A stretch of DNA of 22,175 nt from a virus (lineage: Duplodnaviria > Heunggongvirae > Uroviricota > Caudoviricetes). The stretch lies in IMG/VR virus record IMGVR_UViG_2534682074_000009. One strand, 5' to 3'. Of this stretch, positions 1 to 10,549 are shown one piece after another. The notes under the pieces are model-generated. The model searched no databases and was not told the DNA's origin. It saw only the letters and a program-made list of their open reading frames with translations. The translations under genes were made by a program, and so were the position numbers. The first letter of the stretch is position 1, and every line of letters starts with the position of its first letter.

Positions 1-981
1 TTATAACGTCACTCCGCCTTTTAGTGGATTCAGAGCGACGGCATTTTGCAGATAGTCAGGCGCAAGGTGCGCATAGGCCATCGTCTGCTGAATGCTCGCA
101 TGTCCCAGAATCTGTTGCAGTGCGATTATATTGCCCCCATTCATCATGAAATGGCTTGCGAATGTATGCCGCAGGATGTGGGTTGCCTGATTGGGTGGTA
201 TATCAGGTTTCACTCTGCGTAAAATCCCGCAAAATTTCTCATAATCAACTTTGAATAATTTGGCGCTGGCCTCCTCTTTAACTTTTTTCTCCAGTTCCTC
301 AGAAATCGGCACGGTTCGCTTTTTACCGTTTTTGGTTTTCAGGAAGGTAACCCTGCAATTTGTAATCTGTGCTGGTTTTAGCGTGGCAACTTCCGTCCAT
401 CTTCCTCCGGTGCTCAGACATAAAAGCGCGACAAGTAAGTCATCACCAGCCAAAACATTTAACAGTTTTTCGATTTCTGCTTTTTCCAGGAACGTCATTT
501 CAGGGTTGGCCTCCGCCAGTGGCGGCAGTCCGTGAATTGGGTGTTGCCCGGAAAATTCATCCAATTGAATTAATTTTGTGAACATGCCGGATAATCGGTA
601 CATGTCACGGTTTATCGTTGCGGCACTGATACCATCACGTAGTCGCATGGAACGATAATCCATCAAAGCCCTTTTGCTCATCCTGCTCACTGGTATATCA
701 CCTATGCCGCTGATGGTTTTGAGTAGATGATTAAACTCTTTTGTTCCATGCTCGTGGTTTTGCCCGTGATATTTCCACCAGATGTCCAGCAACTCACTCA
801 AAGTCCGGCGGTCTGCTCGCTGGCCTCCCCATTCTTTCTGACTGGCATTGGCGATTGTGTATCGCTCAAATGCTAGTGCTTCAGCTTTTCTTTCGAATTT
901 CCTGCGGATGCGTTTTCCGTCGCGACCGCGAGGTCTAATGTCCACTTCATAGCGACCATCATCGAGCTTCTTAATTGCCAT
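1..981 (-). CDS. int: Tyrosine site-specific integrase (P2 Int-like)
   Basis: Stop codon is at 1-3 on the reverse strand. C-terminal region carries tyrosine-recombinase signatures (HILRHTFASHF ... LGHASIQQTMAYAHL). N-terminus MAIKKLDDGRYEVDIRP resembles P2 Int as I recall it. Start at 981 is preferred because GGAGGG lies 7 nt upstream; the six-frame ORF extends to 1011 but has no SD there. Confidence 0.9.
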   Translation of the reverse strand: MAIKKLDDGRYEVDIRPRGRDGKRIRRKFERKAEALAFERYTIANASQKEWGGQRADRRTLSELLDIWWKYHGQNHEHGTKEFNHLLKTISGIGDIPVSRMSKRALMDYRSMRLRDGISAATINRDMYRLSGMFTKLIQLDEFSGQHPIHGLPPLAEANPEMTFLEKAEIEKLLNVLAGDDLLVALLCLSTGGRWTEVATLKPAQITNCRVTFLKTKNGKKRTVPISEELEKKVKEEASAKLFKVDYEKFCGILRRVKPDIPPNQATHILRHTFASHFMMNGGNIIALQQILGHASIQQTMAYAHLAPDYLQNAVALNPLKGGVTL

Positions 982-1050
982 AAGAAAGCCCTCCGGCGCT
1001 GTATTCACCATCTTGGTAGCAAATGGTGAAAATGTAATCTTTATATAGAG

Positions 1051-1344
1051 TTAGCCAATCCTTTTCGCGGAGTGGTTGGACTCTGTTGACTCTGGCCCAA
1101 TGTGCGCGAGAGCCGGTGCGATTTGTCCTGCGTCCGGCGCGGTTTTATCTGTCATAAGCCATAGAGCATATTTTTGGAATGTGGGATGCATAGTGATTTT
1201 TAGCAAAGCTGTGCCACCGGGTTCAAAGTTTCCTCCTTCATATTTTTTAAGTGTGCTTAGCGGTAACTCTATGATTTCACAGAATTTTGATTGGCTTAGC
1301 CCTTCAGCCTCACGCAAGGCCTTAATCTTTTCGCTTAATTTCAT
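1051..1344 (-). CDS. C: Immunity repressor (P2 C-like, HTH)
   Basis: 97 aa, immediately upstream of int on the same strand and divergent from cox. The C-terminal segment GQIAPALAH matches the P2 C repressor as I remember it; the N-terminal half has an HTH-like character. Confidence 0.8.
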   Translation of the reverse strand: MKLSEKIKALREAEGLSQSKFCEIIELPLSTLKKYEGGNFEPGGTALLKITMHPTFQKYALWLMTDKTAPDAGQIAPALAHIGPESTESNHSAKRIG

Positions 1345-1403
1345 TTGACATGGTGCCTATATAGGGACTAAATTCCCTCAAAACTGGAACCTATATAGGT
1401 TCC
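1345..1403. promoter_or_regulatory. Genetic-switch region: candidate early promoter Pe with two copies of a palindromic operator
   Basis: TTGACA at 1345-1350 with TAAATT about 18 bp downstream (1369-1374). The perfect palindrome CCTATATAGG occurs twice (1356-1365 and 1390-1399) flanking the putative -10; the second copy extends to GGAACCTATATAGGTTCC (1386-1403). Confidence 0.5.
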
Positions 1404-1480
1404 ATTGATTTGAGAATAAACCAGCATCTAAACGGTTTTGAGTGGTTTAGAAAGGGCTGGATCCTATGAGGGTACCATAT

Positions 1481-1753
1481 ATGGACGCTGAAAATTATGT
1501 GATTCAGTATCCGCTTGATGCGGTTCATGTGGATAAATTTGCTGATTTATTAGGGAAGCCAAAGACAGCCGTCAGTGAAATGGTGAAGGCAAATAAATTA
1601 CCAATTATTGAATTGCGTGATCCTTGCAAACCGAAGGCTCGTGCCGGTGAAAAATGGGTTTTCATTCCTGAGTTTAATCGCGCTGTACGTGAGGCGTTTT
1701 ATAACCGACCGGTTGAACAGCGTGATGCATGGCTTTTGTGGATGGGGTTGTGA
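1481..1753 (+). CDS. cox: Cox-like excisionase / switch regulator
   Basis: About 90 aa, first gene rightward of the switch. Motifs PIIELRDP ... GEKWVFIPEFN ... RDAWLLWMGL parallel P2 Cox as I recall it. GAGGG lies 8 nt upstream of the ATG at 1481; the alternative ATG at 1466 has poorer SD spacing. Confidence 0.8.
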   Translation: MDAENYVIQYPLDAVHVDKFADLLGKPKTAVSEMVKANKLPIIELRDPCKPKARAGEKWVFIPEFNRAVREAFYNRPVEQRDAWLLWMGL

Positions 1754-1755
1754 TT

Positions 1756-1926
1756 ATGAATGAGCCGCGTTGTATTGCTCAGTTATTGCGTAACGAAAGC
1801 CCCAGGGCGATTGACTTCACCATCACCCACGGTAAGGGGCGTAAGGGAATCATTATCCGCACCAAAAAACAGAGTCCGTTAAAAAAGGCTCTGACCTTTC
1901 TGAAAAGCCGGAGGGTATGGAAATGA
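1756..1926 (+). CDS. Small hypothetical early protein (P2 orf78 position)
   Basis: Short basic ORF (starts MNEPRC) whose ATG overlaps the cox stop; position only. Confidence 0.45.
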   Translation: MNEPRCIAQLLRNESPRAIDFTITHGKGRKGIIIRTKKQSPLKKALTFLKSRRVWK

Positions 1927-2423
1927 CAGTGATGACGCTCAATCTCGTTGAAAAACAGCCAGCAGCTATGCGCCGGATAATTGGCAAGCATCTTGCCGTC
2001 CCTCGCTGGCAGGATACATGTGATTATTATAATCAGATGATGGAGCGCGAACGGCTAACGGTTTGCTTTCATGCACAGTTAAAACAGCGTCACGCAACGA
2101 TGCGTTTTGAAGAAATGAACGACGTCGAACGTGAACGACTGGTTTGTGCAATTGATGAATTGCGTGGCGCATTCTCAAAACGCCGTCAGGTCGGCGCAAG
2201 TGAGTATGCATATATTAGTTTTTTAACAGTCAGTCAGCGTCGTACTTTATTTATGCATGCGGGATTGACAGAAAAAGAATTCAATCAGCCGTACTGGCGA
2301 ATTAATGAAGAATCATGTTACTGGCGTGATGCTTTATTCCGTGCATTACGTGAATTATTCAGTCTGTTTGAGTATGCACCGACAATTCTGACGTCGGTAA
2401 AACCAGAGCAATATCTGCATTAA
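1923..2423 (+). CDS. B: Replication protein B-like (position and size)
   Basis: 166 aa if started at ATG 1923, which has GGAGGG 7 nt upstream. Location after cox matches P2 gene B; I do not recognise the sequence directly. Confidence 0.55.
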   Translation: MTVMTLNLVEKQPAAMRRIIGKHLAVPRWQDTCDYYNQMMERERLTVCFHAQLKQRHATMRFEEMNDVERERLVCAIDELRGAFSKRRQVGASEYAYISFLTVSQRRTLFMHAGLTEKEFNQPYWRINEESCYWRDALFRALRELFSLFEYAPTILTSVKPEQYLH

Positions 2424-2444
2424 ATAATTAACCAGAGTTTTTAA

Positions 2445-2472
2445 CGCACTTAATCGTGCGGGGCTTCTTTTT
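2445..2472 (+). terminator. Possible weak intrinsic terminator after B
   Basis: Stem CGCAC / GTGCG with loop ttaatc, followed by gggcttcttttt; the T-run is not immediately adjacent to the stem. Confidence 0.3.
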
Positions 2473-2486
2473 GCCTGGAGAAAGTC

Positions 2487-2711
2487 ATGCATACAGTTTC
2501 TGAAAATCAGTGCGGTAAATACGCATTACTGCTGCAACAGGCCAGAACCGAAGCACAGGCCGACGCTGCGACGCGCTTTTCTTCTCATCTTGACGCCATG
2601 ATTCGCCACATCACAAAGGCGGAGTTATCCCGCGTGGAGATAGTTGAGCTGCTCAGTCAGGAGTCGGAAAAATTTCACAATATCGGATTGTCTCGCGGGG
2701 AGGTGCTTTGA
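2487..2711 (+). CDS. Hypothetical early protein (P2 orf80 position)
   Basis: 74-aa ORF in the compact early operon; AGGAG-like SD (ctggagaaagtcATG); its end overlaps the next ORF start. Confidence 0.55.
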
Positions 2712-3013
2712 TGTCCTGTTCTCGTTCGGTTGTATTACTGAATAACGCCTTAAAAATCGCCGTTATGAAAAATGGTGATTTGTCTCTTATTCAACTTGGT
2801 ATTGATAAAGAGAAGCGCGAAATAACTGAATCTGTTATCGCGATTTATCAGAGTGAATTAAACCTCCTGTCTGATGTGGTCAATTTACTTGTTAAACGCG
2901 CTGTATTCCACAAGCAAATTTCCTCAGTGGATGAACTGACAAAATTAACGACAGAACTCGCCAGTTATTGCGCTGATGAATTTAAGAAGCTGAACGACAA
3001 AAGGAGCTGGTAA
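2708..3013 (+). CDS. Hypothetical early protein (P2 orf81 position)
   Basis: 101-aa ORF, start overlaps the previous stop; AAGGAG lies before the following gene. Confidence 0.55.
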
Positions 3014-3237
3014 TGCCGGACAACGTGGATTTTATTCAGGAACAACAGGCTGAATTACTGGAGCGCCAGATTAACGCGGCAAGGGTAAAACATTGCGGTG
3101 TTTCTGCGCTGGTTTGCGAAGAGTGTGACGCGCCAATACCTGCTGCCCGTCGTGCGGCTTATCCGTCAGCCACGCGTTGTGTTTCCTGTCAGTCAGTCTT
3201 TGAAGCAAAAAACAAACATTACCGGAGAACGGCATGA
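3013..3237 (+). CDS. TraR/DksA-family C4 zinc-finger protein (P2 orf82 position)
   Basis: CEEC ... 17 residues ... CVSC (C-x2-C-x17-C-x2-C) in a 74-aa protein; AAGGAG SD directly upstream. Confidence 0.7.
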   Translation: MPDNVDFIQEQQAELLERQINAARVKHCGVSALVCEECDAPIPAARRAAYPSATRCVSCQSVFEAKNKHYRRTA

Positions 3238-3509
3238 GTATTCGTATTGAAATTGGCGAACGTTATGTCGTTACCAGTGACAGCTTTCAGTTTATTCTCC
3301 ACGAGAAAAAGAGAGCGGAAAGCGGTAAAAACGCCGGTCAGGAATGGCTGGCGGTGGTTGGTTATTACCCGAAATTAGGCCAGCTCGTTTCCGGCCTGAT
3401 GCATCACGATATTCTGACCGGAAGCGCAAAATCTTTTGCTGATTTAAACGCGCAGGTTGAGCAACTCAGCAAGCGTTGTTCAGAGGCTTTTGGCTCATAT
3501 GGCCGTTAA
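3234..3509 (+). CDS. Hypothetical early protein (P2 orf83 position)
   Basis: 91-aa ORF whose start overlaps the previous stop and whose end overlaps the gene A start. Confidence 0.55.
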   Translation: MSIRIEIGERYVVTSDSFQFILHEKKRAESGKNAGQEWLAVVGYYPKLGQLVSGLMHHDILTGSAKSFADLNAQVEQLSKRCSEAFGSYGR

Positions 3510-5775
3510 AGCCTCCGGGCGTTTTGTCCCTCCGTCAGCATTTACCGCAGGCACCGGTAAGGCGTTTACCGGTGCTTATGCATGGAACGCGCCACGCGAG
3601 GCTGTCGGGTGCGAAAGACCTCTTACACGTGACGAGATGCGTCAGGTGCAAGGTGTTTTATCCACGATTAACCGCCTGCCTTACTTTTTGCGCTCGCTGT
3701 TTACTTCACGCTATGACTACATCCGGCGCAATAAAAGCCCGGTGCACGGGTTTTATTTCCTCACATCTACTTTTCAGCGTCGTTTATGGCCGCGCATTGA
3801 GCGTGTGAATCAGCGCCATGAAATGAACACCGACGCGTCGTTGCTGTTTCTGGCAGAGCGTGACCACTATGCGCGCCTGCCGGGAATGAACGACAAGGAG
3901 CTGAAAAAGTTTGCCGCCCGTATCTCATCGCAGCTTTTCATGATGTATGAGGAACTCTGCGATGCATGGGTTGATGCGCATGGTGAAAAAGAATCGCTGT
4001 TTACGGATGAGGCGCAGGCTCACCTGTATGGTCATGTTGCTGGCGCTGCACGTGCTTTCAATATTTCCCCGCTCTACTGGAAAAAATACCGTAAAGGACA
4101 GATGACCACGAGGCAGGCATATTCTGCCATTGCCCGCCTGTTTAACGATGAGTGGTGGACTCATCAGCTTAAAGGCCAGCGTATGCGCTGGCATGAGGCG
4201 TTACTGATAGCTGTCGGGGAGGTCAATAAAGACCGTTCTCCTTATGCCAGTAAACACGCCATTCGTGATGTGCGTGCGCGCCGCCAGGCAAATCTGGAAT
4301 TTCTTAAATCGTGTGACCTTGAAAACAGGGAAACCGACGAGCGCATCGACCTTATCAGTAAGGTGATGGGCAGTATTTCTAATCCTGAAATTCGCCGGAT
4401 GGAGCTGATGAACACCATTGCCGGTATTGAGCGTTACGCCGCCGCAGAGGGTGATGTGGGGATGTTTATCACGCTGACCGCGCCGTCAAAGTATCACCCG
4501 ACACGTCAGGTCGGAAAAGGCGAAAGTAAAACCGTTCAGCTTAATCACGGCTGGAACGATGAGGCATTTAATCCAAAGGATGCGCAGCGTTATCTCTGCC
4601 GTATCTGGAGCCTGATGCGCACGGCATTCAAGGATAATGATTTACAGGTCTACGGTTTGCGAGTCGTCGAGCCACACCACGACGGAACGCCGCACTGGCA
4701 TATGATGCTTTTTTGTCATCCACGCCAGCATAACCAGATTATCGAAATCATGCGTCGCTATGCGCTCAAAGAGGATGGCGACGAAAGAGGAGCCGCGCGA
4801 AACCGTTTTCAGGCAAAACACCTTAACCGGGGCGGTGCTGCGGGATATATCGCGAAATACATTTCAAAAAACATCGACGGCTATGCACTGGATGGTCAGC
4901 TCGATAACGACACCGGCAGGCCGCTGAAAGACACTGCAGCGGCTGTTACCGCATGGGCGTCAACGTGGCGCATTCCGCAATTTAAAACGGTTGGCCTGCC
5001 GACAATGGGGGCTTACCGTGAACTACGCAAATTGCCTCGCGGCGTCAGCATTGCTGATGAGTTTGACGAGCGCGTCGAGGCTGCACGCGCCGCCGCAGAC
5101 AGTGGTGATTTTGCGCTGTATATCAGCGCGCAGGGCGGGGCAAATGTCCCGCGCGATTGTCAGACTGTCAGGGTCGCCCGTAGTCTGTCGGATGACGTTA
5201 ACGAGTACGAGGAAGAAGTCGAGAGAGTGGTCGGCATTTACGCGCCGCATCTCGGCGCGCGTCATATTCATATCACCAGAACGACGGACTGGCGCATTGT
5301 GCCGAAAGTTCCGGTCGTTGAGCCTTTGACTTTAAAAAGCGGCATCGCCGCGCCTCGGAGTCCTGTCAATAACTGTGGAAAGCTCACCGGTGGTGATACT
5401 TCGTTACCGGCTCCCACACCTTCTGAGCACGCCGCAGCAGTGCTTAATCTGGTTGATGACGATGTTATCGAATGGAATGACCCGGAGGTCGTGAGGGCGC
5501 TCAGGGGCGCATTAAAACACGACCGGAGAACGCCAAACCGTCAGCAAAGAAACGGAAGCCCGTTAAAACCGCATGAAATTGCACCATCGGCCAGACTGAC
5601 CCGGTCGGAACGATTGCAAATTACCCGTATCCGCGTTGATCTCGCTCAGAACGGTATCAGGCCGCAACGATGGGAGCTTGAGGCGCTGGCGCGTGGCGCG
5701 ACCGTAAATTATGACGGGAAACCTTTCACTTATCAGGTCGCTGATGATTGGCCGGGATTTTTGTTACCCATTTGA
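3499..5775 (+). CDS. A: Rolling-circle replication initiation endonuclease (P2 gpA-like)
   Basis: About 758 aa. Contains the histidine motif PHWHMMLF and the paired catalytic tyrosines in GYIAKYISK, characteristic of P2 A-type initiators. Start 3499 (MAVKASGRF) chosen within the longer six-frame ORF. Confidence 0.9.
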   Translation: MAVKASGRFVPPSAFTAGTGKAFTGAYAWNAPREAVGCERPLTRDEMRQVQGVLSTINRLPYFLRSLFTSRYDYIRRNKSPVHGFYFLTSTFQRRLWPRIERVNQRHEMNTDASLLFLAERDHYARLPGMNDKELKKFAARISSQLFMMYEELCDAWVDAHGEKESLFTDEAQAHLYGHVAGAARAFNISPLYWKKYRKGQMTTRQAYSAIARLFNDEWWTHQLKGQRMRWHEALLIAVGEVNKDRSPYASKHAIRDVRARRQANLEFLKSCDLENRETDERIDLISKVMGSISNPEIRRMELMNTIAGIERYAAAEGDVGMFITLTAPSKYHPTRQVGKGESKTVQLNHGWNDEAFNPKDAQRYLCRIWSLMRTAFKDNDLQVYGLRVVEPHHDGTPHWHMMLFCHPRQHNQIIEIMRRYALKEDGDERGAARNRFQAKHLNRGGAAGYIAKYISKNIDGYALDGQLDNDTGRPLKDTAAAVTAWASTWRIPQFKTVGLPTMGAYRELRKLPRGVSIADEFDERVEAARAAADSGDFALYISAQGGANVPRDCQTVRVARSLSDDVNEYEEEVERVVGIYAPHLGARHIHITRTTDWRIVPKVPVVEPLTLKSGIAAPRSPVNNCGKLTGGDTSLPAPTPSEHAAAVLNLVDDDVIEWNDPEVVRALRGALKHDRRTPNRQQRNGSPLKPHEIAPSARLTRSERLQITRIRVDLAQNGIRPQRWELEALARGATVNYDGKPFTYQVADDWPGFLLPI

Positions 5776-6033
5776 GTAAAAATACAGCGTGATTTTATAT
5801 GTCTTTGAATGGATTATGCGAAGCACCTCTAAGGTAGATGAGGAGCAATAGCGTGTTGAATCAGAAGGCTAAATTGTATTGAATCGTTAGCATGTAATTG
5901 AAGGCAGCTATTTGATTCGAGTCATAAAAGAGCATCTATTTCGGTTAATAAAACCATTGCGAGTGACTTTATGTCGAAGCATAATTCATCTCGAGCGAAG
6001 TCTTGCTAGTCTTTCATCGGATTGATGACGGGC

Positions 6034-6067
6034 GCAAAAAAACCACCCTGGCAGGTGGTTTTTTTGT
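6034..6067. terminator. Bidirectional intrinsic terminator
   Basis: Seven A (6036-6042), stem ACCACCCTG / CAGGTGGT, seven T (6059-6065). Can terminate plus-strand transcripts leaving A and the minus-strand mini-ORF transcript. Confidence 0.55.
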
Positions 6068-6077
6068 TTGAAGCATA

Positions 6078-6191
6078 CTAAAGAAAAATACTTACATGGA
6101 TATTACTGACGTTTACTGACAAACCACTCGGACTACCATATGGATAGCCAAAGAGGGCCAGAACGAGAATGCAGTAATAGCACTTCTTCAT
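6078..6191 (-). CDS. Candidate 37-aa hydrophobic small protein (MKKCYYCILVLALFGYPYGSPSGLSVNVSNIHVSIFL)
   Basis: Absent from the ORF track because it is short. Perfect AGGAGG 4 nt upstream of the ATG (reverse complement of 6196-6201); stop at 6078-6080 is directly followed on the minus strand by the 6034-6067 terminator. Hydrophobic N-terminal half. Confidence 0.3.
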   Translation of the reverse strand: MKKCYYCILVLALFGYPYGSPSGLSVNVSNIHVSIFL

Positions 6192-6847
6192 ATCGCCTCC
6201 TGTAAGCAGAGGGCAATTTCCGCCGATATATGCGCTTCTAAGGCGGAGTGACTATTGAGCGAAGTCTTGCCCTGAAATAATGCTCTGTTTAAACGCAAAG
6301 TGATCTGGCATATCACCGAACAGAGGACCTGAACAACACAACATATAGTATGTCGTTGTTTCTGGTTGCATTTTATGTTGTGTAATACTGGTTTTGCATC
6401 AAGGATGTTTGAGCTTTTTTTGATATAGCTCAAAGTAAAAAGCAGAGACTACGGATGATAAGGTCTTGAAAGCAATGTAAATTTTTTAAAGTTGTGAGTG
6501 GCTAGAAATGCACAGTTTCAATATGGCGGATTTAAACAAGTAATTAAAAATAGCGACATAAATTCAAATAAAATCATTAAGTTGCGTTTTCTGTGGAAAC
6601 TTCGGTGACTCTGAAATTTTCTTTTAGTGTCGCTGAGGTTTAACAACTCGCTGCGCAAGTAGTTAGTGTTTTTTTAATTCAATATTCTGATTTATAAGGT
6701 TTTTTATAAATCGTGGGCTGGTTGCGCGTATTCATCTCGTGTTATCAGCAAAGATAAGCTCTATATGCAGAACTGAATGCATATATGATGTCGAAAATGT
6801 TATGGGAAAACGTGGATTAGTGTTATAGTAATGGCTGAAAAACAGCC

Positions 6848-6912: not shown

Positions 6913-7398
6913 ATGAGCTATGCAGCTAAAAAACTGCTTGACCGCTATTGGGATCGCCGACTACCTGTCGATCCGTTTAAGCTTGCTAAAGCGTGGGGTG
7001 CTCGTGTTGAAGCACTTGAGGAATCGGCTTATAACAACGATGGGTTAAGCGGTCTGGCTGTCATCAAAAAGGGTGTCCATAGGATTTATTTTGATTCTAG
7101 TGAACATTCTAATCGTCAACGTTTTACTGTTGCACACGAGTTAGGTCATCATGTGCTGGGGCATACCCAGGACGGAGAGTACCATCGGGATAATGTCGGG
7201 AATTATTCAACAGGTGCTCGTGATTACCGTGAGGTTGAAGCAAACAAGTTTGCTGCTGAGTTGTTAATGCCTGAGTCTGCTATACGTCAATTGGTATCCA
7301 GAGAAGGTATTGATAGCACTTTGAGATTAGCAAGCATCTTTAATGTATCAGAAGCCGCTATGCATTGGCGCTTAAAGAGCTTAGGAATGGCTTATTAA
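6913..7398 (+). CDS. ImmA/IrrE-family (COG2856 / DUF955-like) zinc metallopeptidase, stand-alone
   Basis: 161 aa. HEXXH motif in FTVAHELGHHVLGH and the downstream EANKFAAELLMP signature typical of this family. Strong SD. No adjacent XRE/HTH partner ORF is visible. Confidence 0.8.
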   Translation: MSYAAKKLLDRYWDRRLPVDPFKLAKAWGARVEALEESAYNNDGLSGLAVIKKGVHRIYFDSSEHSNRQRFTVAHELGHHVLGHTQDGEYHRDNVGNYSTGARDYREVEANKFAAELLMPESAIRQLVSREGIDSTLRLASIFNVSEAAMHWRLKSLGMAY

Positions 7399-7425
7399 TT
7401 AGCCTTTAACTTTTAACCTGTTTAA

Positions 7426-7464
7426 AATCACCTTTACGTTTGTACATGTAAGGGTGATTTTTTT
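7426..7464 (+). terminator. Intrinsic terminator between the peptidase and membrane-protein ORFs
   Basis: 11-bp stem AATCACCTTTA / TAAGGGTGATT (one G-U pair), loop containing palindrome TACATGTA, then seven T (7458-7464) abutting ATG 7465. Confidence 0.5.
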
Positions 7465-8064
7465 ATGGCTGATATTGATTTATCTGGACAGTCCCCAGAG
7501 CAAGGAACCACTCCTAAGGGCGATTTAGATCCTGATATCCTTATAAGGCGAGATAGACGGGATGGTATAGAGCGTAGAAGTATGCGATTAGTGCTCTCTG
7601 CCGTTGTGCTTTGTTTTGCTTGTACATTTCTATGGCAGGGGCTTAACTTTGCTTTGGCTGTTGGAAATGGCTTGCTGGAAGCGAAAAGCAGTATTGCCGC
7701 AGCGATAACACAAAAAGTAGATACACAAACTTGTGTTTCAGCAGAAAAATGTTCTGCTTTATCTTCGGATCCGAAGATGGCTGATGAGAGGATAACACCA
7801 TCTTCAGACACTAATAAAGTTAGAAAATCTATTTCTGGTTTATCCACCGATTGGTTATCGGCCAGTTCTCTAATAGCTATTGTTGCATTCATCCTTGGTG
7901 TGGGTTTAACTTTGCTTTTGACTCTTCTTAAATCAGCATTTCAACACCCGACAGATAAAGACTTTAGAACAAAGTCGACATCTAATACTATTGAGTTGGC
8001 CACGCCAATCAGTGAATTAATAATTGGTGTTCTGAATATAATTAAAGACAAACTATCTAAGTAA
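7465..8064 (+). CDS. Predicted small membrane protein with two hydrophobic helices
   Basis: 199-codon ORF in AT-rich DNA. Two ~22-residue hydrophobic segments (LVLSAVVLCFACTFLWQGLNFALAV and LIAIVAFILGVGLTLLLTLL). Start uncertain (weak SD; internal Met at 7582 possible). Followed by the 8107-8139 terminator. Confidence 0.45.
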   Translation: MADIDLSGQSPEQGTTPKGDLDPDILIRRDRRDGIERRSMRLVLSAVVLCFACTFLWQGLNFALAVGNGLLEAKSSIAAAITQKVDTQTCVSAEKCSALSSDPKMADERITPSSDTNKVRKSISGLSTDWLSASSLIAIVAFILGVGLTLLLTLLKSAFQHPTDKDFRTKSTSNTIELATPISELIIGVLNIIKDKLSK

Positions 8065-8106
8065 AGCATTAGTTGTGATTTTTTATTGGTTTTAGTGATA
8101 ATACAT

Positions 8107-8139
8107 CTCCAGTACTTATTGTTACTGGAGAGTATTTTT
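8107..8139 (+). terminator. Intrinsic terminator in the convergent gap
   Basis: Stem CTCCAGTA / TACTGGAG (8107-8114 / 8123-8130), 8-nt loop, then agtattttt. Sits between the plus-strand membrane ORF and the stop of the minus-strand 313-aa gene. Confidence 0.45.
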
Positions 8140-8146
8140 AGTCGTT

Positions 8147-9088
8147 TTATATTTTTAATGTTAGTGAATGATATTCACGAGAGTTCACGTTCGATGTGAT
8201 GTAATCGGGGGCGTTAACACCAAGAATCGCAACGAGTAATCGGCAAATTAAAGCCTGCATTTGTTGTAATATGTCATCTCCATATTGATAATTGTTAATA
8301 GTGGTAAAGCCAAGTGGTTGACCATGAAACATAGCTTCATGAAAGTTTTCATTGCGGATGTTTGTAATGTTTTTTTTGCCTGTAACCCATGATGGTCGTG
8401 GTATTCCATAAGTTTTGCAGATCCACTTCAAGCGCCTGGAGTGATTTAGAGTCTTTTCTGTACACTTGTTCTTTTCTGCCCATGTTAAAGCAAAGCAACT
8501 ATCCAGTGCCATATAAAGATACTGGAATTTTTCGAAGCTAAGGTATTGTGGGTTTTGGGATAAAAATAGTGCATGCACTATTGCTGCTATATTTATTGGT
8601 GCGTGTTTGGTTTTTGTCTCGCTAGACATGTATTTGAGTGCTAATTCTATAACCTCTTTTTCAGAGCACTTGACCAGAATAAAGTCAGTTAATTTGCTGG
8701 GTTTTATTGGGGTTGCGTCTAAAAAACCGGCATCAGTAGTTGTTAATCTTATCCCTTTGAAAAAAGACAGACACCACACAGCAAAATTGAGAGTTTCTAG
8801 TGAAGATGTATTTTTTAATTTTAGTGAGTGTGTTTTGGGTAAACCAAATACTCGTTGGCTAAAAGGCATTGTGGATATGCCTCCATTGAGGTTATATACT
8901 TCTTGGTTTCCTGGGTATATCCAACCGTTAATAACATTTCTGTGATTGTTTATAAGATTTGTTTTTTCCGCTAGACCGGGTAAAGTAAGTAAAGAAAAAT
9001 CATCAGTTTCAACGTTAACTTCTACTGGATAGTATCCAAACTCAGCTTCAATATCATTGGATTGCTGTTCGTCAACTTTACCTTGCAT
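8147..9088 (-). CDS. Hypothetical 313-aa cargo protein; possible HEPN-like (R-x4-H) domain
   Basis: Long uninterrupted ORF in AT-rich DNA; GGAG 6 nt upstream of the ATG. Same orientation and position relative to cos that tin/old occupy in P2. Single motif R245-N-E-N-F-H250 in a predicted helical C-terminal half. No family confidently recognised. Confidence 0.7.
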   Translation of the reverse strand: MQGKVDEQQSNDIEAEFGYYPVEVNVETDDFSLLTLPGLAEKTNLINNHRNVINGWIYPGNQEVYNLNGGISTMPFSQRVFGLPKTHSLKLKNTSSLETLNFAVWCLSFFKGIRLTTTDAGFLDATPIKPSKLTDFILVKCSEKEVIELALKYMSSETKTKHAPINIAAIVHALFLSQNPQYLSFEKFQYLYMALDSCFALTWAEKNKCTEKTLNHSRRLKWICKTYGIPRPSWVTGKKNITNIRNENFHEAMFHGQPLGFTTINNYQYGDDILQQMQALICRLLVAILGVNAPDYITSNVNSREYHSLTLKI

Positions 9089-9326
9089 ACATTGCTCCGG
9101 TCAAAAATAGGCTCGATAATTCTCGTAAGCCTATCATGTTCGCAAAGTATCCATTCCTGTGGATTTTGTAAATTTAAGTTGATTTGTCATTAAATAAGCC
9201 GTTGCATGCAACAAGTGAATGTTTTTGCATGCGTCGGGGATGTCCGTTCAGGCTGCGTGCGGTCAGGACTGGTGCGGATCCATAGTATCTATGCAACTGC
9301 ATTAAAACCGCCCCATGAAGCGGGCG

Positions 9327-9345
9327 GGCGAGGCGGGGAAAGCAC
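9327..9345. other. cos site (19-nt cohesive-end sequence, P2-type)
   Basis: GGCGAGGCGGGGAAAGCAC matches the P2 cohesive-end sequence as I remember it, at the expected place between the cargo region and Q, followed by a G/T-rich packaging region (9346-9480). Confidence 0.55.
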
Positions 9346-9487
9346 TGCGCGCTGGCGGTGGTGCTGATTTTATTTTTTCAGCGTCTGAGCGCGTCGTGAA
9401 GGCGCTTAGTCTGCCCGTTGAGGCGTTGGTGTGTCTGCGGGGTGTTTTGTGCGGTGGTGAGCGTGTGAGGGCGTGATGACGGGGTGT

Positions 9488-9509
9488 AAAAAAGCCGCCC
9501 GCAGGCGGC
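9488..9509 (-). terminator. Intrinsic terminator downstream of Q
   Basis: On the minus strand: stem GCCGCC / GGCGGC with 4-nt loop followed by six T (six A at 9488-9493 on plus), 6 bp after the Q stop. Confidence 0.5.
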
Positions 9510-9514
9510 GATGT

Positions 9515-10549
9515 TCAGCCGTTGTCAGTGTCCAGTGAGTAGTTTTTAAAGCGGATGACCTCCTGACCGAGCCAGCCGTTTATCTCGCGGATCCTGTCCT
9601 GTAGCGGGATAAGCTCATTGCGGACAAAGACCTTTGCCACTTTCTCAATATCACCCAGCGACCCGACGTTCTCCGGCTTGCCGCCCATCAACTGAAAGGG
9701 GATGCGGTGCGCGTCCAGCAGGTCAGCGGCGCTGGCTTTTTTGATATTAAAAAAATCGTCCTTCGTTGCCACTTCACTGAGCGGGATAATTTTAATGCCG
9801 TCGGCTTTCCCCTGCGGGGCATAGAGAAACAGATTTTTAAAGTTGTTGCGGCCTTTCGACTTGACCATGTTTTCGCGAAGCATTTCGATATCGTTGCGAT
9901 CCTGCACGGCATCGGTGACGTACATGATATATCCGGCATGAGCGCCGTTTTCGTAATACTTGCGGCGGAACAGCGTGGCCGACTCATTCAGCCAGGCAGA
10001 ATTAAGGGCGCTGAGATATTCCGGCAGGCCGTACAGCTCCTGATTAATATCCGGCTCCAGCAGGTGAAACACGGAGCCGGGCGCGAAGGCTGTCGGCTCG
10101 TTGAAGGACGGCACCCACCAGTAAACATCCTCTTCCACACCACGGCGGGTATATTTTGCCGGTGAGGTTTCCAGTCTGATGACCTTACCGGTGGTGCTGT
10201 AACGCTTTTCCAGAAACGCATTACCGAACACCAGAAAATCCAGCACAAAGCGGCTGAAATCCTGCTGCGAAAGCCACGGATGCGGGATAAACGTTGAAGC
10301 CAGAATATTGCGTTTGACGTAAATCGGTGAGCTGTGATGCACGGCAGCACGCAGGCTTTTTGCCAGACCGGTAAAGCTGACCGGTGGCTCATACCATCTG
10401 CCGTTACTGATGCACTCGACGTAATCCAGAATGTCACGGCGGTCGAGTACCGGCACCGGCTCGCCAAAGGTGAATGCTTCCATTTTCGGGGCGCTGGCGG
10501 TGATTGTTTTTGCCGCAGGTCGCGGTGTTTTCCCTTTTTTCTTACTCAT
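9515..10549 (-). CDS. Q: Portal protein (P2 gpQ-like)
   Basis: 344 aa, first late gene next to cos on the minus strand, overlapping the P stop; size and position as in P2. Confidence 0.9.
   Translation of the reverse strand: MSKKKGKTPRPAAKTITASAPKMEAFTFGEPVPVLDRRDILDYVECISNGRWYEPPVSFTGLAKSLRAAVHHSSPIYVKRNILASTFIPHPWLSQQDFSRFVLDFLVFGNAFLEKRYSTTGKVIRLETSPAKYTRRGVEEDVYWWVPSFNEPTAFAPGSVFHLLEPDINQELYGLPEYLSALNSAWLNESATLFRRKYYENGAHAGYIMYVTDAVQDRNDIEMLRENMVKSKGRNNFKNLFLYAPQGKADGIKIIPLSEVATKDDFFNIKKASAADLLDAHRIPFQLMGGKPENVGSLGDIEKVAKVFVRNELIPLQDRIREINGWLGQEVIRFKNYSLDTDNG

Follow-up and report, generated by a model that had tools for sequence, protein, structure and literature searches.

A 37-codon gene with a candidate convergent antisense RNA on P2-like prophages and enterobacterial plasmids: a probable type I toxin–antitoxin-like module

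In the type I toxin–antitoxin system par of pAD1 (Enterococcus faecalis), the genes for the Fst messenger RNA (mRNA; RNA I) and for RNA II are read from convergent promoters towards a bidirectional terminator, direct repeats are read in opposite directions by the two genes, and a stem-loop covers the Shine–Dalgarno (SD) sequence (PMC7472228). TimP of Salmonella and Escherichia coli is a signal-like peptide of 38–41 residues encoded at the 3′ end of an RNA of about 300 nucleotides (nt) that was once thought to be non-coding; here too the SD lies in a stem-loop, and the small RNA (sRNA) TimR pairs with the 5′ untranslated region (UTR) upstream of it (PMC7667032, PMC11228461). Standby or structure-gated ribosome loading has been described for tisB and timP (PMC11228461). 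The locus described here is closest to par by architecture and to timP/timR by product and host. It lies in a 22,175-nt stretch of tailed-phage DNA (IMG/VR record IMGVR_UViG_2534682074_000009), the whole of which is referred to as the window, and is a self-contained module of about 540 base pairs (bp; window about 5948–6489) in which a 37-codon open reading frame (ORF) on the minus strand faces a candidate antisense sRNA gene on the plus strand. The two probably form a type I toxin–antitoxin-like pair; as far as sequence comparison can tell, the module has the anatomy of a type I locus, yet stands outside every described family.

A preliminary description of the window had proposed that the ORF is a type I toxin-like gene, or encodes a small membrane-active peptide, with an architecture like that of Hok, Ldr or Ibs. 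The class assignment is supported by the retained reading frame and the ratio of non-synonymous to synonymous substitution (dN/dS), but the architecture is rather that of par and timP: the antitoxins of Hok, Ldr and Ibs overlap the toxin gene or its leader in cis, whereas complementarity in the module comes from a distal repeat. With regard to the general hallmarks of type I systems, the ORF encodes a small (<60 residues), hydrophobic protein of 37 residues, an adjacent gene for a complementary sRNA is found in silico, and the predicted SD hairpin is an mRNA fold that would restrict initiation. The elements of the module are:

5957–5985, plus strand: sigma-70 promoter of the sRNA, from a promoter scan (TTGCGA 5957–5962, 17-bp spacer, CATAAT 5980–5985)
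5992–6067, plus strand: predicted antitoxin-type sRNA of about 75 nt, with seed GAGCGAAGUCUUGC (5993–6006), central hairpin (6009–6033), terminator (6035–6066) and U-run
6035–6066, not assigned to one strand: bidirectional intrinsic terminator common to both convergent transcripts, a perfect 13-bp inverted repeat
6036–6363, minus strand: predicted toxin-type mRNA of about 330 nt with putative ends, composed of a structured leader of about 170 nt, the 37-codon ORF and the terminator
6078–6191, minus strand: 37-codon ORF MKKCYYCILVLALFGYPYGSPSGLSVNVSNIHVSIFL, intact in all homologues and under purifying selection
6195–6214, minus strand: predicted SD-sequestering hairpin GCCCUCUG-CUUA-CAGGAGGC, which contains AGGAGG (6196–6201) and is present in the minimum-free-energy and centroid folds
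6257–6270, minus strand: predicted sRNA target site GCAAGACUUCGCUC, about 55 nt upstream of the SD, one copy of a direct repeat in the DNA
6283–6325, minus strand: most conserved hairpin of the leader, in two steps, CUCUGUU-C-GGUGAU...AUCACU...AACAGAG

As in par, convergent promoters are combined with one bidirectional terminator that would give the two RNAs complementary 3′ stem-loops, direct repeats transcribed in opposite directions provide a second, distal complementarity, an intramolecular stem-loop is predicted to sequester the SD, and the locus resides on mobile elements. Unlike par, which has both DRa and DRb, the module has a single repeat pair, and its repeat is located well upstream of the SD and does not cover the initiation region. 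Its hosts are enterobacteria, and its toxin promoter is derived from nrdDG. The peptide is without similarity to Fst, the PXXXG motif was not found by eye in the alignments, and Pfam and NCBIfam gave no match that would place the peptide in the Fst/Ldr superfamily.

In common with timP/timR, the module specifies a small protein with a signal-like N-terminus whose ORF is placed near the 3′ end of a predicted RNA of similar length, a predicted SD stem-loop, and predicted sRNA pairing within the 5′ UTR. An N-terminal start of the form C-x-C-I-h-h-h is also shared by K-12 TimP and the Klebsiella variant (MKIRCFCIVLIV vs MNRLCLCILVLT), a likeness that is suggestive only. Homology to TimP was sought in four ways (NF040796, BLASTP and two hhalign runs) and is unsupported. 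None of 11 family members matches the toxic_TimP model NF040796 at E ≤ 10, where K-12 TimP itself scores 86.8 bits; BLASTP of the module peptide against TimP returned no alignment; and hhalign gave probabilities of 15% and 7%, covering residues 1–11 only. At the RNA level, the Rfam model RF00126 (RyfA) has no match at its gathering score or at E ≤ 10, and an alignment with K-12 ryfA is without similarity. The arrangement of the two genes differs as well, since TimR is divergent and located upstream, whereas the module sRNA is convergent, located downstream, and shares the terminator. Furthermore, timPR belongs to the chromosomal core and the module to mobile elements.

The systems tisB/istR-1, zorO/orzO and dinQ/agrB resemble the module in that their sRNA finds a short (about 14–20 nt) perfect match at a large distance upstream of the structured ribosome-binding site, as is usual for control of the standby type (cited in PMC11228461), and in having a small hydrophobic product. 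Their sRNAs are, however, encoded divergently upstream, their mRNAs need processing, and their toxins each consist of one transmembrane helix and lack a signal-like N-terminus; the tisB and dinQ promoters are SOS-controlled, in contrast to the FNR/NrdR-type promoter predicted here. Searches of Pfam and NCBIfam showed no sequence similarity between the peptide and the products of these systems, or between the peptide and Hok, Ldr and Ibs. As for hok/sok, ldr/rdl and ibs/sib, the likeness extends to a small hydrophobic peptide, control by antisense RNA, and carriage on plasmids and prophages; hok differs in its dependence on 3′ processing and on the mok frame that overlaps it. No plus-strand promoter-like site opposite the ORF was found in the promoter scan.

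Coding status of the 37-codon ORF

The SD on the minus strand (AGGAGG, 6201–6196), the spacer CGAT (6195–6192) and the ATG (6191–6189) are all present as first described, and the ORF reads through 6191–6078 to a TAG at 6080–6078. Its product has a basic N-terminus, a hydrophobic core of 11–13 residues (residues 4–14 in the window), a conserved GYPxGSxSG turn region, and a C-terminal stretch in which hydrophobic and polar residues alternate; the grand average of hydropathy is 0.86. An AGGAGG followed after 3–9 nt by an ATG that opens an ORF of 30–60 codons is also present in 16.5% of the sequences obtained by dinucleotide shuffling of the window, so the single sequence is not significant alone, and it is the comparison with homologues that makes the case.

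Of 5426 complete E. coli genomes, 152 carry homologous DNA, which forms three P2-prophage haplotype groups (100%, 97% and about 92% identity); it is also present on about 394 Klebsiella plasmids (about 76% identity), and on metagenome and viral contigs. E. coli W has the module in its EN1077-type form, and so have ST131 strains. Altogether, about 60 homologous units were recovered from E. coli P2 prophages, from plasmids of Klebsiella, Salmonella and Citrobacter, and from inovirus-like elements. More distant members were obtained when 1.84 billion representatives were scanned in full with phmmer (8 matches); two of the members found in this way adjoin inovirus genes (Zot, secretin) and have ORFs of 37 and 38 codons. 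Divergent members on Salmonella and Citrobacter IncF plasmids, among them L106 and L107, are referred to as subfamily B.

Conservation of the frame in related sequences had been put forward as a test of the gene, and the frame, the length, the SD core and the ATG are indeed all retained. The reading frame is kept in every homologue, up to a DNA divergence of about 26%, and the ORF is intact in all of the about 60 units and in all 17 peptide variants. Its length is 37 codons in the units, 37–38 if the inovirus-adjoining members are included, and 39 in subfamily B, where start, stop and length persist down to a peptide identity of about 15%. No homologue deviates in the SD core (GGAG) or in the ATG. 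By the Nei–Gojobori method, dN/dS is 0.16–0.33 for every pair in the ORF frame, as compared with 0.7–2.7 in frame +2, the only alternative frame that could be scored, and the variable sites are distributed over codon positions 1, 2 and 3 as 13, 9 and 26 (p = 0.007). Across 18 haplotypes, the ORF has undergone a single insertion or deletion (indel), of 3 nt, and the non-coding parts of the unit 22, one of which is a multiple of three. These patterns show purifying selection on the gene, and the mini-ORF is almost certainly a real protein-coding gene.

The opposite view takes the ORF to be fortuitous and the transcript of about 330 nt to be a regulatory RNA that encodes no protein at all and is conserved for its structure. 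It can draw on the leader, which is more strongly conserved than the ORF, and on the frequency of comparable ORFs in the shuffles. Against it stand the low dN/dS and the excess of variation at third positions, the in-frame nature of the sole ORF indel as against 21 of 22 out-of-frame events outside, and the retention of start, stop and length in subfamily B, and we regard this view as extremely improbable.

The ORF had been called unannotated, and this applies to all 152 RefSeq E. coli genomes that carry it, but one phage record (OQ383618) lists it as a hypothetical protein (WFG40939.1). When the peptide together with three upstream in-frame residues was used as query in a protein-cluster search among 5.8 billion proteins, 2 peptide-bearing clusters were found; Pfam, NCBIfam and PADLOC returned zero matches. 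Of the database proteins, P0076, P0080 and P0081 are N-terminal extensions introduced by gene callers, which run through the leader into the mini-ORF, and P0001 stems from one genome in which a frameshift at the 3′ end lengthens the peptide to 68 residues. A pattern scan of genome contigs with CAGGGCAAGACTTCGCTC gave 25 matches, all in non-enterobacterial metagenome-assembled genomes and presumably due to chance; the pattern is too lineage-specific (the Klebsiella form is GTGGCAAG). Full-text literature searches with the peptide and the seed sequence found no relevant paper.

Two longer ORFs on the same strand, of 39 residues (6252–6371) and 81 residues (6188–6433), were rejected as candidates: both start at or upstream of the predicted −10 element and transcription start, and both are disrupted by a 2-nt indel in the EN1077 lineage. 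A lipoprotein was ruled out by the absence of a lipobox, and a leader peptide or attenuator by the terminator, which has no gene after it.

The convergent RNA, its target site and the shared terminator

The 14-mer GAGCGAAGTCTTGC is present in two exact copies that form a direct repeat (5993–6006 and 6257–6270 in plus-strand coordinates; 0.14 expected in the window). The latter copy is situated within the mRNA leader and the former beyond the terminator. Convergent transcription of a repeat that is direct in the DNA makes the seed of the sRNA complementary to the leader sequence. The predicted duplex between sRNA and leader has an energy of −40.1 kcal/mol, as compared with −26.9 ± 3.2 kcal/mol in 1000 shuffles, none of which equals it. 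Nine distinct haplotype pairs of seed and target retain 14–17 contiguous base pairs, at −25.6 to −33 kcal/mol, and the single substitutions in seed or target are all compatible with G·U pairing (on the mRNA side, A has become G or C has become U; on the sRNA side, C has become U). In L103, a distant member, both copies of the repeat have changed together, from GGCAAG to GACAAG, and in subfamily B three positions are changed in both copies (GGTAAGGCTTTGCTC). Subfamily B also retains the nrdD-like promoter, the layout of the sRNA promoter, and a homologous 39-codon ORF, MDRRDCMCLFILTLISHLITGQESWMVYLNHISLTVQFY.

The seed begins after 7 nt from the −10 element CATAAT of the sRNA promoter. In 17 haplotypes, the −35 element (TTGCGR), the −10 element, the 17-bp length of the spacer, the 7-nt distance and a 13-nt seed are invariant, while the sequences of the spacer and of the 7-nt discriminator vary freely, which is the pattern expected of a working promoter. 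The same layout was read from the sequences of L103, L104 and L106. The predicted sRNA has a fold z-score of −4.27, and in all lineages it consists of the seed, a central hairpin of lineage-specific sequence, and the terminator. Taken together, the promoter, the seed of 14–17 nt, the lineage-specific hairpin and the shared terminator make the antisense sRNA a strong in-silico candidate.

A separate observation was made in L088, a human gut metagenome contig (about position 3196, minus strand), where a clean deletion between repeats of 14–16 nt has removed the ORF, the terminator and the body of the sRNA. What remains is the nrdD-like promoter with the early part of the leader, now joined to the region of the sRNA promoter.

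That the repeats recombine, as in L088, is one of the points in favour of a reading without any sRNA, according to which the 14-nt repeats act at the DNA level, as a protein-binding or recombination site or as the remnant of a duplication, and the ORF is a lone small gene that ends at a terminator which also stops the phage early operon. The match of the sRNA promoter is modest, and the bidirectional terminator lies downstream of the phage gene gpA and could serve it. The fixed spacing and invariant hexamers of the promoter, with varying sequences between them, are difficult to reconcile with this reading, as is the retention of the same elements on plasmids and inovirus-like elements that lack gpA. 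Furthermore, a hairpin, though of differing sequence, is formed between seed and terminator in every case, and substitutions in either copy of the repeat are all pairing-compatible. A module without an sRNA thus appears very unlikely.

The terminator is strictly conserved. Its arms (6066–6054 and 6047–6035) read C-A7-CCACC and GGUGG-U7-G around a UGCCAG loop, and it begins 11 nt past the stop codon. The hairpin and T-run that had been noted after the ORF are therefore present, but the terminator is not dedicated to this gene: an A-run precedes and a T-run follows the hairpin, so that it is bidirectional and shared. Owing to this symmetry (A7...T7) it should terminate transcription both ways, and it was missed by a scanner for consensus terminators because the A and T runs form part of the stem. 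At this site, the overlap between the two RNAs would be about 31 nt. All family members, subfamily B among them (about 1501–1536 in L106 and L107), have the 31-nt terminator sequence AAAAAAACCACCTGCCAGGGTGGTTTTTTT with 100% identity, although the subfamily B peptide is only about 15% identical and the leader is unalignable. To judge from the alignments, such constraint exceeds what termination alone explains; it would agree with a twofold function, one in each RNA, and possibly also with a role in their interaction. In Rfam, both at the gathering threshold and at E ≤ 10, only weak, terminator-driven matches were obtained (RNAI, Phe_leader).

As for the mRNA, its predicted fold is better than that of shuffles (z = −3.58), and the unit is conserved as a whole across P2 prophages, plasmids and inovirus-like elements. 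All 13 pairs of the hairpin at 6325–6283 are invariant in 21 haplotypes. In L103, its outer stem has changed from CTCTGTT/AACAGAG to CTCTGCC/GGCAGAG in a compensatory manner, and a second compensatory change, G-C to A-U, is seen in the hairpin at 6247–6219 in the EN1077 lineage. The SD has a probability of 0.16 of being unpaired in the predicted fold, and three pairs of the hairpin that encloses it have changes on both sides. Corresponding SD-sequestering hairpins were drawn by eye from the sequences for L103 (CCCUA/UAGGG), L104 (CCCG/CGGG) and subfamily B (L106; CCUC/GAGG). The target site of the sRNA is relatively open, with a mean unpaired probability of 0.54. Promoter, seed, target, hairpins and terminator are thus shown by comparison to be conserved and to co-vary.

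The nrdDG-derived promoter and the proposed function

The 97 bp at 6393–6489 are homologous to the E. coli nrdDG promoter (85.6% over 97 bp, 95% over a core of 66 bp), and in blastn searches of all 5426 E. coli genomes this stretch maps to the treC–nrdD intergenic region of every genome. The following elements were assigned to the mRNA promoter:

6433–6420 and 6402–6389, minus strand: FNR-type sites TTGAGCTATATCAA and TTGATGCAAAACCA, respectively, within the nrdDG-homologous stretch
6370–6375, minus strand: −10 hexamer TAAAAT, which aligns with the nrdD −10
6383–6368 and 6351–6336, minus strand: NrdR-box-like 16-mers ACACAACATAAAATGC (12/16) and ATACTATATGTTGTGT (14/16), respectively, 32 bp from start to start

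Transcription of the mRNA would start at about 6363 (±3). The half-sites TTG...TCAA of the FNR-type sites are invariant in 18–21 haplotypes, and the T, A, A, A and T at positions 1, 2, 4, 5 and 6 of the −10 element in all haplotypes. Since these elements are conserved in all lineages, control of the FNR type, whose role at nrdDG has been described (PMC2892513), can reasonably be expected for the family. The 14/16 site is the top NrdR-like match in the entire 22-kb window; for comparison, the K-12 nrdD boxes score 13/16 with starts 31 bp apart. The canonical spacing of NrdR boxes is 31–32 bp (PMC2892513), and 15 bp separate the nrdDG boxes (PMC12176259). In the commonest Klebsiella lineage the NrdR-like boxes are degenerate, and in L103 box 2 is deleted, so that NrdR control is not general to the family. 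Regulation of the mini-gene promoter by NrdR can thus be proposed for this window only.

The promoter thus resembles that of nrdDG in its homology over the FNR sites and the −10 element and in the box spacing of 31–32 bp. It differs in that the mini-gene is driven instead of nrdDG, and in the position of the boxes, which are about 10 bp farther downstream in the P2 lineage; in other lineages box 2 is one helical turn farther. A 19-nt imperfect inverted repeat, whose arms (6327–6345 and 6374–6392) are 79% complementary and separated by 28 nt, spans the predicted −10 element and start, and coincides with the two NrdR-box-like elements. Only its downstream arm would be contained in the RNA, which makes a DNA-level operator more likely than an RNA hairpin.

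Based on these elements, the following mechanism can be proposed. The promoter copied from the host nrdDG operon, with its FNR sites and NrdR-like boxes, would produce the minus-strand mRNA, whose long leader would fold with the SD locked in a hairpin. Translation would then need ribosome entry via the open part of the leader, i.e., standby or structure-gated loading, and the 37-residue product, with its signal-peptide-like N-terminus, would probably insert into the inner membrane. From the convergent, constitutive-looking promoter, the sRNA would be made up to the same bidirectional terminator. Its 5′-most 14–17 nt may pair with the part of the leader that is accessible upstream of the SD, and there is further complementarity between the two RNAs in their overlapping 3′ terminator regions. 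We predict that pairing blocks standby or structure-dependent ribosome loading and/or triggers cleavage and decay of the duplex, which would keep the peptide off, and that the putatively membrane-active or toxic peptide is made once synthesis of the mRNA outruns that of the sRNA. This could take place in anaerobiosis (FNR), upon a fall in deoxyadenosine triphosphate (dATP; release of NrdR), or upon loss of the element or of its transcription.

The main rival to a toxin–antitoxin-like pair is a non-toxic small membrane protein under sRNA control, i.e., a genuine small membrane or exported accessory ('moron') peptide of prophages and plasmids that is expressed under anaerobic or nucleotide-limited conditions and modulates a host membrane complex, the sRNA being an ordinary post-transcriptional regulator. 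Purifying selection spans the whole peptide, including its polar C-terminal half, the hydrophobic core is short and signal-like, and the nrdDG-like promoter is condition-specific, all of which would suit such a protein; TimP itself is tolerated at native levels (PMC7667032). A double lock composed of a sequestered SD and a dedicated antisense sRNA is, on the other hand, a signature of toxic products, as are autonomous mobility and residence on plasmids, in prophage hotspots and on inoviruses, and the natural deletion in L088 takes out exactly the ORF. We therefore consider a non-toxic product unlikely.

Several observations nonetheless weigh against the preferred interpretation as a type I pair. 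The hydrophobic core, with 11–13 residues, does not reach the length of the transmembrane helix in classical type I toxins, and a single-sequence AF2 model of the peptide is of low confidence (pLDDT 68) and uninformative. The peptide matches no toxin family (11 members, E ≤ 10) and the RNAs match no Rfam family. Most of the structural helices are invariant and hence uninformative. The sRNA promoter agrees with the consensus at 9 of 12 positions, and equally good matches are as frequent in shuffles. The coordinated change of the two repeat copies could in part reflect gene conversion between direct repeats, which do recombine, as noted above for L088. To these points can be added the state of the NrdR-like boxes in the Klebsiella lineage and in L103.

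A more far-reaching interpretation is that the module is the founder of an undescribed enterobacterial type I family in which the toxin is wired to the anaerobic ribonucleotide-reductase circuit of the host, with activation by FNR and repression by NrdR/dATP. The membrane peptide would be released when the oxygen or dATP signal collapses, for example during phage attack on nucleotide pools or loss of the element, and the module would function as an abortive-infection or addiction switch. In that case, a switch that senses nucleotides and oxygen would border the P2 defence hotspot and would also be carried by resistance and virulence plasmids of Klebsiella, and the module might be an ancient relative of TimP. 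Given what the comparison offers, we regard this extended scheme as speculative and rather improbable.

If the simpler interpretation as a type I pair is correct, the module represents a new family within the class. It would extend the par design of convergent genes, shared terminator and distal repeats, known from Gram-positive bacteria, to enterobacteria, and the link between a toxin-type gene and an nrdDG-derived promoter would offer a testable idea on the timing of toxin release. As a compact natural system, it would also lend itself to the study of standby or structure-gated translation and of the co-evolution of sRNA seed and target. New type I families are not rare; the interest of this one lies in the completeness of the comparison, the wide spread over clinically relevant plasmids and prophages, and the ribonucleotide-reductase link. 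The module is found in about 3% of complete E. coli genomes (152/5426) and on about 400 plasmids of Klebsiella, Salmonella, Enterobacter and Citrobacter, where it is invisible to current annotation, and it is without an entry in Rfam, Pfam and NCBIfam. The about 1.1 kb of 'empty' DNA past gpA in P2-like prophages should no longer be taken as non-coding.

Genomic contexts and neighbouring genes

The module is autonomous, as its flanking genes are entirely different from one context to the next (P2 prophages, plasmids of Klebsiella, inovirus-like elements, IncF plasmids). On the Klebsiella plasmids, they comprise insertion sequence elements, Mla-like transporters, CBASS-like genes, and RES/Abi genes. 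On the Klebsiella-type plasmid pJ53-KPC_Vir (L053), a gene annotated as type I toxin DinQ (3881–4018) is located about 1 kb from the module, and a CBASS-like set (7104–10363; nucleotidyltransferase, ThiF-like protein, MPN protein, 3′–5′ exonuclease) 2–5 kb from it. The metagenome contig Ga0268256_1001162 (L084) carries two diverged modules 2.9 kb apart (3346–3877 and 6267–6798), which encode different peptides, MNRWCLC... and MNRVCLC...

The window itself is a P2-like (Peduovirus) prophage, with the following gene order:

1–1011, minus strand: integrase
after the integrase: repressor and cox region
3457–5775, plus strand: replication endonuclease gpA
from 9515 onward: portal, terminase, capsid and tail genes

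The mini-gene sits in AT-rich cargo (G+C 40%, vs 52% window-wide) that separates gpA from the portal gene. This is a variable region of P2 phages, in which the gene content differs between relatives. Further along the cargo, an ImmA/IrrE metallopeptidase gene (6913–7398, plus strand) matches the PADLOC capP model (1.1e-30); a helix-turn-helix partner typical of CapH/CapP pairs was not seen. It is followed by an ORF for a membrane-like protein of 199 residues (7465–8064, plus strand) and by an ORF of 313 residues without family assignment (8147–9088, minus strand). The latter, together with the repeated motifs, had given rise to the idea of a retron (msr/msd with a reverse transcriptase), which was dropped because the ORF has no match in Pfam or PADLOC, Rfam gave nothing, and the repeats are direct. 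With respect to gpA, more than ten 'complete' RefSeq E. coli chromosomes start exactly at the gpA start codon of a P2 prophage (coding sequence 1..2277, with the matching stretch at 2278–3414 of the record), probably an artefact that arises when sequences are automatically rotated to a 'replication' gene.

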